Sequence record: PP239276.1
DNA: 64,000 nt
From: Escherichia phage BME3
Reading direction: 5' to 3' (one strand)
Under the pieces are notes generated by a model that worked only from the letters and a program-made list of their open reading frames with translations, did not search any database and was not told where the DNA came from. A program made the translations under genes and the position numbers. The first letter of the stretch is position 1; the number at the start of each line of letters is the position of its first letter. Positions 61,640 to 64,000 of this stretch are shown in pieces.

Positions 61640-62054
61640 TCACTGTAATAAGGTTTTTCATAACCATAACACCCTGAATATAGCCTAGCCAACGATGGCG
61701 TTTGGTTTCAGACATACCATTACACCCATCCTGAATTTCATTCAACATCCACAGTAAGTGGGGAACACCTGTTTCACTAGTATCTGGATCTTCTACAGAA
61801 CTAAGAATAGTTTCATAGCGTTCACAAATTTCTGGGTAGAATTCATAATCCTGTTGTACATCTCGCATTTCTTGAATGAAGTGACGAGCAATAGGTTTTC
61901 CACGAAAATATTCATTGAGGAAATCAATAACACACATCTCACTGCCTGTCACCACGGAAGGCTTTCCTGTGTTAAATTGAACACTCACACCGCATTCTTT
62001 TACCAGATTATGTACACGCTCCGTGTTAGCAAGATACAAAGATACAGTTTTCAT
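61596..62054 (-). CDS. hypothetical protein
   Basis: 152-aa ORF. Confidence 0.5.
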   Translation of the reverse strand: MKTVSLYLANTERVHNLVKECGVSVQFNTGKPSVVTGSEMCVIDFLNEYFRGKPIARHFIQEMRDVQQDYEFYPEICERYETILSSVEDPDTSETGVPHLLWMLNEIQDGCNGMSETKRHRWLGYIQGVMVMKNLITVNDERNATRPVFNGA

Positions 62055-62124
62055 TTACACCTCTCATTAGTAGTTTGTTATGCGCGATATTGCATATCTT
62101 ATGGAACACAGTGTACAGGCATTT

Positions 62125-62547
62125 CTATTCAATGCAAGCATTATTTGCATCTTCGATTCTGTCTTTCACCCACTGCAATCTCTTTGGGTTGGTATGGCAA
62201 GAATGTGTCTTACCTTCGTCTTCATAACACAGAAGATCATAATTAAAGGGTAGGAAGGAGGATAGCCCAGCACACGTGAATTGCAGTTTCATCTCTTCCA
62301 GCGTTTTGCTACGAACCATCTTGAAATGTTCTATATCTTCTTGCGTAGGTTTTTTCTTTGACATAGTGGTTGCCAGGTAATCCATAAGGCAATTACACAA
62401 ACCAACATTCTCACGATGCATTGAGGAATGATCTTCCATCCATGCTTTATAGAATTCTAACAGCAGTGGACTGCTAAGAGGAACACACATATCAGACTCC
62501 TTTATAAATTTACGTTTCATGCCACACATAATACAGCGTCTTTTCAT
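62125..62547 (-). CDS. hypothetical protein (family A, copy 3)
   Basis: 140 aa; LLEFYKAWMED, GLCNCLMDYL, LPFN, RLQWVKDRI; first gene downstream of the repeat-containing non-coding region. Confidence 0.5.
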   Translation of the reverse strand: MKRRCIMCGMKRKFIKESDMCVPLSSPLLLEFYKAWMEDHSSMHRENVGLCNCLMDYLATTMSKKKPTQEDIEHFKMVRSKTLEEMKLQFTCAGLSSFLPFNYDLLCYEDEGKTHSCHTNPKRLQWVKDRIEDANNACIE

Positions 62548-62721
62548 CTATTACAAGAACAGTAACATAGGAACATCATTAATGAAGGAATTAGTATAGG
62601 TATTCCCTATCAATTATTCTATATATACCTATTATTTTTAACACACCCATTTGTACATAATATAGACAAATAAATATCTATGCCACAAAAATTTTCCGGT
62701 ATACCCGATTTATTTCGACAC

Positions 62722-63139
62722 ACCCCCTTTTCATAAGCGTAAAGTCAATAATATCAATAACTTGCCGCAAAATACTGCTCGCTTGCGAGAGGTGCTTAAC
62801 GCGATTTTCAGCGCCCCCCGATTTCTGCCGACCGTCCCCCTCAAATATCAATGAGAATAATTATCATTTGCATTATCATTCAATGACTTATAAGACTTTT
62901 GATTATTTTCTGAGCGAAAAAGGTGCTACTCACAACAAAACAGATAAATTCTAAGTAAATCAATGACTTGGCAAGTCTAAACATCTATATACACCTTGCC
63001 AAATGAAATGATCCTGCGTGAAATAGTGCTACCCGTGGAAGATAGCTGATAATGATTATCATTTGCATATTTTCTATACTATAAAACGCCCTAAAAATCA
63101 AGATAATTCTACTTTATTGCGCTTTTAAGAAAGTAGGCT
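62722..63139. repeat. direct repeat copy 1 (~417 bp)
   Basis: Near-identical to 63584..64000 (about 3 mismatches, all near the 5' end); contains inverted repeat TTGGCAAG-N21-CTTGCCAA and hairpin CTCGC-TTG-CGAG. Confidence 0.8.
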
Positions 63140-63140
63140 C

Positions 63141-63212
63141 AACAAATAGGGAGATACATTGCAACAAATAGGGGTAATTTTATCCAACAAATAACAACAA
63201 ATAGTAAGTTAT
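63141..63212. repeat. iteron-like short direct repeats (CAACAAATAG x4)
   Basis: caacaaataggg...caacaaatagggg...ccaacaaataa...caacaaatagtaag within ~70 nt between the two large repeat copies. Confidence 0.6.
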
Positions 63213-63439
63213 ATGGGGCAATAGTATGAAAAATCATCTATTCAGATATAAATAATTTTGCGCAATAGTAGTAATATTTTCTTGACAAGAAAGATTTCTT
63301 TGTGTTCACATAGCGCCCCCTGGAAGGTGGCGCATTATGATCATCGGTGTCATTATTCACGATGTTTACTATTGCATAGCTCATTATTTAGCTTATATTA
63401 TAGCCAATGTTCTAAACATTAGCTAATAATAACGCACCG

Positions 63440-63540
63440 CAACAATGTAAGGGAATACAATATACCATGTATATTGTTGCGCTTGCAATTGTTGCAAGCT
63501 ACATAAGCACAAATAATAACTATCGGTGATAGTTATTATG
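63440..63540. promoter_or_regulatory. cluster of perfect palindromes (candidate operator/origin elements)
   Basis: GCTTGCAA-TTG-TTGCAAGC and AATAACTATC-GGT-GATAGTTATT lie within ~60 nt; coordinates approximate. Confidence 0.45.
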
Positions 63541-63583
63541 TGGGGTGTGTAGTTGCGTTATTATTAGCCGCCTATGTGTCCGG

Positions 63584-64000
63584 CACCCTTTTCATAATCG
63601 TAAAGTCAATAATATCAAAAACTTGACGCAAAATACTGCTCGCTTGCGAGAGGTGCTTAACGCGATTTTCAGCGCCCCCCGATTTCTGCCGACCGTCCCC
63701 CTCAAATATCAATGAGAATAATTATCATTTGCATTATCATTCAATGACTTATAAGACTTTTGATTATTTTCTGAGCGAAAAAGGTGCTACTCACAACAAA
63801 ACAGATAAATTCTAAGTAAATCAATGACTTGGCAAGTCTAAACATCTATATACACCTTGCCAAATGAAATGATCCTGCGTGAAATAGTGCTACCCGTGGA
63901 AGATAGCTGATAATGATTATCATTTGCATATTTTCTATACTATAAAACGCCCTAAAAATCAAGATAATTCTACTTTATTGCGCTTTTAAGAAAGTAGGCT
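63584..64000. repeat. direct repeat copy 2 (truncated by window end)
   Basis: Matches 62722..63139 base-for-base over its visible length apart from ~3 substitutions; may extend beyond the window. Confidence 0.8.

Follow-up and report, generated by a model that had tools for sequence, protein, structure and literature searches.

The 415-bp sequence that is present twice at the end of the stretch of Escherichia phage BME3 DNA analysed here (64,000 nt of record PP239276.1, hereafter the window) is the terminus module of this phi92-like myovirus (Justusliebigvirus). It consists of about 343 bp that we identify, with high confidence, as the direct terminal repeat (DTR) of the phage, and of 72 bp of flanking sequence. 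The DTR is annotated in phages phi92 and UAB_1 and has been reported for BME3, so in its core this finding is not new; the second, inner copy has not been reported before but may be non-biological. What we offer is mainly the clarification of an annotation, in which a conspicuous repeat is recognised as a known phage terminal repeat and not as a new regulatory system.

Self-comparison of the 64-kb window aligned 62725-63139 with 63586-64000 in the same orientation, with 412 identities over 415 bp (99.3%), and detected no third copy. A first-pass annotation had described a near-identical direct repeat in two copies with about three substitutions near its 5′ end, which agrees with these results; the period of 862 bp given there is corrected to a start-to-start offset of 861 bp. 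There are exactly three mismatches between copy 1 and copy 2 (62737/63598, G>T; 62758/63619, T>A; 62765/63626, C>A), all of them no more than 41 nt from the left edge of the repeat and inside the 72-bp flank. Copy 2 is cut by the window end, as had been stated, and this is also the genome end, position 64000 being aligned to base 1 of phi92. The smaller motifs that had been listed within the repeat are all present in amended form. The inverted repeat, TTGGCAAG at 62968-62975 with CTTGCCAA at 62995-63002, has a spacer of 19 nt and not 21. The hairpin written as CTCGC-TTG-CGAG is a 5-2-5 palindrome, CTCGC-TT-GCGAG (CTCGCTTGCGAG, 62778-62789), and it shares the flank (62725-62796) with tandem TCAATAA repeats. 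The repeated motif reads GA(G/T)AAT(A/G)ATTATCATTTGCAT and occurs in copy 1 at 62853-62873 and 63048-63068. The features of the region are as follows.

62125-62547, minus strand: first early ORF beside copy 1
62725..63139, plus strand: copy 1, 415 bp, the inner copy, adjoining the leftward early genes
62725..62796, plus strand: 72-bp flank of copy 1, just outside the left DTR boundary, in the ancestral state
62797..63139, plus strand: D1, the 343-bp homologue of the phi92 DTR in copy 1, placed by alignment to the phi92 DTR
63140..63585, plus strand: spacer B, 446 bp, between the copies and followed by copy 2 across a novel junction (63585/63586)
63586..64000, plus strand: copy 2, the terminal copy, 415 bp; it ends with the window, at a base that aligns to phi92 base 1
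63586..63657, plus strand: 72-bp flank of copy 2, in which 63598, 63619 and 63626 are private transversions
63658..64000, plus strand: D2, the DTR homologue of copy 2, 343 bp, lying at the genome end and without a difference from D1 (100% identity)

The identification of the core as a DTR comes from comparison with annotated relatives. The record of Escherichia phage phi92 annotates a 343-bp DTR at 1-343 and 148270-148612 (features PHI92_DTR-L and PHI92_DTR-R), that of UAB_1 annotates a DTR at 1-343, and the paper describing BME3 (genome of 147,371 bp, accession PP239276) reports 342-bp DTRs determined with PhageTerm. Base 1 of phi92 aligns to window position 63139 and also to 64000, while phi92 148612 aligns to 62797. 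Over the full 343 bp, D1 and D2 are 95.9% identical to the phi92 DTR. In alignments the terminal base of the window corresponds to base 1 of phi92, W22, PHB05, VEcB, PD114 and UAB_1, and the PD06 record ends at the same terminus base; at least six records start or end exactly there. Only copy 2 lies at this physical end, copy 1 being internal. Since the last base of the window corresponds to the phi92 terminus, the window ends at the genome end and copy 2 is the terminal DTR copy; copy 1, beside the early genes, is taken to be the native one. Of the functions that had been proposed for the repeat, a genome-end structure is thus the one supported, the 343-bp core being a full-length homologue of the phi92 and UAB_1 DTR with copy 2 at the terminus. 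The BME3 module shares with the DTR of phi92 and UAB_1 the same two boundaries, the same place beside small early genes and the same genome-end base. It differs in that phi92 and the other relatives have one copy per genome unit, whereas BME3 has a second copy together with the 72-bp flank, lying 861 bp inward from the same end.

We compared this arrangement with related genomes. About 60 genomes of Justusliebigvirus (phi92-like) phages match the region at 92-97% identity, and copy 1 matches the single copy in about 55 relatives at 95-97% identity. In the orientation of the window, the order in the relatives is early genes and their leader (A), the 72-bp flank, the DTR (D), spacer B and region C, the last being conserved, AT-rich and beginning with TAGGCTGCTAATGATACGC. 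In the BME3 window the flank and DTR recur after B, in place of region C. From its sequence, the record is most simply described as holding a head-to-tail duplication of an 861-bp unit (72-bp flank, DTR and B) across the terminus: the unit at 62725-63585 is followed at once by 63586-64000 with a single novel junction, the second unit being visible for 415 bp only, up to the genome end. A query spanning this B/flank junction (63585/63586) was split into two pieces in 40 of the 40 relatives listed. Among the relatives listed, the module lies at one place per record, apart from records carrying the DTR at both ends (phi92, UAB_1) or an inversion. The exact junction sequence was not found in viral, metagenome or genome contig collections, and the module occurs once in each of three metagenome contigs whose neighbouring gene product is identical. 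Exact look-up of two window proteins gave no match, and that of a third led only to contigs not from BME3, again with a single copy. Three window proteins are exact matches to UniRef entries found in no phage but BME3. The duplication is not mentioned in the BME3 paper.

The three substitutions that separate the copies are private to copy 2. Among 59 relatives none matched the copy-2 flank better than 77/80, and the substitutions fall at positions where none of the 59 differ. They lie in a 191-bp block (62725-62915) that spans the left DTR boundary and shows zero variation among six aligned relatives, its surroundings being about 5% divergent. The T>A change disrupts the second TCAATAA repeat and the C>A change disrupts a TTGC-C-GCAA palindrome. 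For three substitutions to cluster this close to the junction has a probability of (41/415)^3, or about 0.001, and all three are transversions, compared with 39 transitions to 17 transversions in the natural variation of the region (P about 0.03). A degenerate pattern over the three variant positions had one match in IMG/VR and none in metagenomes, a sparse sample. We considered the import of the variants from another lineage and rejected it: no relative has any of the copy-2 variants, and all BME3-specific states are common to the two DTR cores. The view that the extra copy is an artefact of assembly gains some support from where the three substitutions lie and from their type.

We think it slightly more likely than not, and likelier than fixation in the phage, that the extra copy arose during assembly or finishing. 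One plausible route is that a contig with redundant or erroneous ends, or a low-abundance chimeric path, was circularised and later opened again, DTRs being attached at that step. Contig ends overlapping by the 861-bp unit and treated as a circle would produce exactly the order seen here, A, flank, D and B joined to the variant flank and D. The BME3 genome was assembled from Illumina 150-nt paired-end reads with BBNorm and SPAdes in Geneious. According to the PhageTerm paper, mistakes are often introduced by assemblers at contig edges, and the output genome is reorganised at the termini and completed with the repeats. Consistent with such an origin, the structure is confined to one record among about 60 records and three contigs. 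The three private transversions cluster within 41 nt of the joint at otherwise invariant sites, and the 343-bp cores are without any difference.

Several points speak against an origin in assembly or finishing. Because the junction lies away from any physical end of the DNA, it is not accounted for by simple end-joining or by pasting of the DTR. The overlap that SPAdes normally leaves in a plain cycle is that of a k-mer, and not 861 bp. Isolated errors beside abundant correct k-mers should moreover be removed by SPAdes read correction, which suggests that the three surviving variants had the support of several reads. For a contig in which the repeat occurs twice, the reported PhageTerm call is 'Multiple' termini, yet a clean DTR was reported by the authors. 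The account of how the record was constructed draws on a methods paragraph and on the export step of PhageTerm, and is tentative.

A comparable case is the record of Klebsiella phage FKP3 (PP895363.1), in which a 317-bp terminal repeat is present three times, at 1-317, 501-817 and 141961-142277 (the last 317 bp). From the flanks of these copies it seems that the contig had not been rotated to the terminus when the DTR was pasted onto its two ends. Errors in finishing therefore do occur around this repeat, and the pasting-like structure of a second record of the genus lends weight to an artefactual origin in BME3. Both phages have an additional DTR copy, 100% identical and a few hundred bp away from the genome end, and in each case one record of the genus is concerned. 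The extra copies of FKP3 have exact DTR boundaries, whereas the BME3 unit extends 72 bp further, includes spacer B and carries three variants.

The main alternative to an artefact is a genuine 861-bp tandem duplication of flank, DTR and B that became fixed in BME3, which we regard as quite possible if not the favoured explanation. Here the concatemer would carry two packaging-terminus modules, of which one or either would be used. The changes in the copy-2 flank would then stem from error-prone template switching at the junction, or would have been selected to disable a redundant cleavage or recognition site. A novel junction away from the physical ends is what illegitimate recombination would give, and the three private variants imply that copy 2 is no computational copy of copy 1. 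These variants strike conserved motifs (the TCAATAA repeat and the TTGC-C-GCAA palindrome), and given read error correction the survival of three stray errors seems unlikely. Headful measurement does not limit packaging in DTR phages, which should therefore tolerate the additional 861 bp. Against fixation, the duplication is absent from about 60 relatives and three metagenome contigs, and a perfect 861-bp tandem repeat should recombine away quickly. The contrast between no differences in 343 bp and three in 72 bp needs special pleading. The three changes are, moreover, all transversions and all beside the junction.

It is also conceivable, albeit improbable, that the lysate was heterogeneous, and that minority molecules with the duplication, or a small circular by-product of 861 bp, were threaded into the consensus by the assembler; part of this probability is shared with that of an artefact. 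Such a mixture would account for a real junction with private variants as well as for its absence in all relatives, and a chord in the assembly graph that led from the end of B to the flank would yield A, flank, D, B, variant flank and D. On the present data it looks the same as an artefact or a fixed duplication. The inner copy should be treated as unverified, and if it is an artefact, as we favour, the BME3 record is 861 bp too long. Were the duplication real, BME3 would be a natural two-terminus variant, and the three flank mutations would mark bases important for recognition by the terminase.

We also considered whether the two copies could be a functional design kept by selection, that is, early-promoter or regulatory cassettes in duplicate, or a repeat belonging to a replication origin. 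Such an interpretation can appeal to a promoter-like sequence facing the early genes, to palindromic operator-like sites and to the iteron-like CAACAAATA repeats that lie between the copies.

62974..63002, minus strand: promoter-like TTGGCA-17-TAGACT, facing the early genes and lying inside TTGGCAAG-N19-CTTGCCAA; second copy from 63863 to 63835

In the alignment, phi92 has a perfect TTGACA at the same −35 position. However, the limits of the identical core are exactly those of the annotated DTR, and a generic scan for σ70 promoters found no enrichment (11 found, 8.7 expected from shuffled sequences). Possession of two copies is not conserved, since relatives that share the early genes have one. 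With about 60 relatives and three contigs being single-copy and without the junction, duplicated early promoter or regulatory cassettes, which the first-pass annotation had offered as one possible reading, are not supported as a design, and we judge the whole proposal very unlikely. A generic scan for terminators found none. Small ORFs within the repeat, annotated by some pipelines, were considered as genes and provisionally rejected, the curated phi92 record having no CDS there.

The two DTR boundaries, as defined by the phi92 annotation, lie in similar sequences (the slash marks the cut).

62794..62800, plus strand: left DTR boundary, GCT/TAAC, with the cut between 62796 and 62797; the motif occurs again at 63655-63661 in copy 2
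63137..63143, plus strand: right DTR boundary, GCT/CAAC, with the cut between 63139 and 63140; copy 2 ends at ...GGCT

Their contexts, GGTGCT/TAACGCG and TAGGCT/CAACAAA, both conform to GCT/YAAC on the same strand, and this motif has only nine occurrences on both strands of the 64-kb window. GCT/YAAC is a candidate cleavage motif. FKP3 has the same two motifs 344 bp apart (counted from the sequence), and its annotated repeat falls short of them by 14 nt and 13 nt, which we take to reflect loss of ends during library preparation. The 32 nt around the left DTR boundary, including the CTCGCTTGCGAG palindrome, are identical in FKP3, which is otherwise about 78% identical in the region.

By analogy with T7-type phages with short DTRs, replication concatemers of BME3 would carry one DTR between genome units. 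The packaging nuclease (terminase) would cut at both DTR boundaries, each within GCT/YAAC, and copying of the DTR would then provide each virion with one at either end. Also within the DTR are the leftward σ70-like promoter and a pair of operator-like palindromes, which face the early genes. In common with T7-type packaging (PhageTerm class 'DTR (short)'), BME3 has a short exact repeat of a few hundred bp and sequence-defined ends. The T7 terminal repeat has repeat arrays beside it, and in BME3 an array of short direct repeats (CAACAAATA) likewise lies directly beside the repeat. Unlike T7, BME3 is a myovirus of about 147 kb with unrelated sequence, and the putative cleavage motif GCT/YAAC at both boundaries is an observation of the present analysis. 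Features of the packaging site that can be tested are GCT/YAAC at the two boundaries (a distance of 343-344 bp in phages of E. coli and Klebsiella), the 191-bp block, which is free of variation in the aligned relatives, and Fur-box-like palindromes in the DTR. Full-text searches gave no description of the boundary motif, of the Fur-like sites or of the structured element in spacer B (both below).

Spacer B contains further elements. Four CAACAAATA repeats (63140-63203) start exactly at the right DTR boundary, outside the repeat, and their number varies among relatives through insertions and deletions. They look like iterons or terminase-binding repeats. At 63279-63291 there is a perfect 6-1-6 palindrome, TTCTTG-A-CAAGAA, which contains the consensus TTGACA and is kept in all aligned relatives; a role as operator, or as a weak rightward promoter lying upstream of a structured element, is conceivable. 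This element (63422-63568, plus strand, 147 nt) has a perfect 15-bp closing stem, GCTAATAATAACGCA with TGCGTTATTATTAGC, and two inner hairpins. Folded as RNA it has a free energy of −66.2 kcal/mol (z = −7.3). It is conserved in six E. coli-phage relatives and in FKP3, with three compensatory pairs and, in four sequences, a change from U-A to U-G. Rfam covariance models gave no match at E≤1 in 62000-64000. The element could act as an RNA or a DNA structure beside the genome end.

Two palindromes within the DTR resemble the Fur box of Enterobacteria (19-bp GATAATGATwATCATTATC; 7-1-7 unit TGATAATnATTATCA).

63047..63061, no strand assigned: palindrome TGATAATGATTATCA, 15/15 to the Fur 7-1-7 consensus; second copy at 63908-63922
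62852..62866, no strand assigned: palindrome TGAGAATAATTATCA, 14/15 to the 7-1-7 consensus; second copy at 63713-63727

Against the 19-bp consensus, 63048-63066 scores 17/19. There are four 7-1-7 sites with no more than one mismatch in the 64 kb, all inside the DTR copies, where 0.03 would be expected by chance. One relative has three more sites (no more than two mismatches, two of them overlapping) at 5441-5513 in region C, which brings its total to five sites in 9 kb compared with 0.16 expected. The Fur-like sites are palindromic and conserved in position in E. coli and Klebsiella members, and region C of relatives holds two or three more. In the Klebsiella relative the DTR palindrome persists with symmetric changes (TGAGAAT-C-ATTCTCA), which argues for a dimeric binder that is not necessarily Fur. 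It is a tentative and rather doubtful suggestion that each DTR copy has two working Fur operators, one perfect and one with a single mismatch, 195 bp apart and bracketing the leftward early promoter. If so, this virulent, phi92-like phage might gate early transcription or genome-end events on host iron, or might titrate Fur. This interpretation of the sites stands whether or not the 861-bp duplication is real.

A second copy of the module in phages AMO3598 and pEC-M2929 was considered and rejected, the match at two places being a 104-bp inversion without duplication in AMO3598 and presumably in pEC-M2929 as well. In phage vB_EcoM_AMO3598, 5199-5302 corresponds to window 62926-63029, a 104-bp segment of the DTR that is inverted at 97% identity and holds the TTGGCAAG/CTTGCCAA inverted repeat and the promoter-like site; the match statistics of pEC-M2929-1AR.1 are identical to those of AMO3598. 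In a related phage, the independent ENA contig NODE_3_length_127335, which has a SPAdes-style name, breaks (positions 1-160) in the AT-rich region C, about 155 nt from the boundary between B and C, suggesting that this region is hard to assemble.
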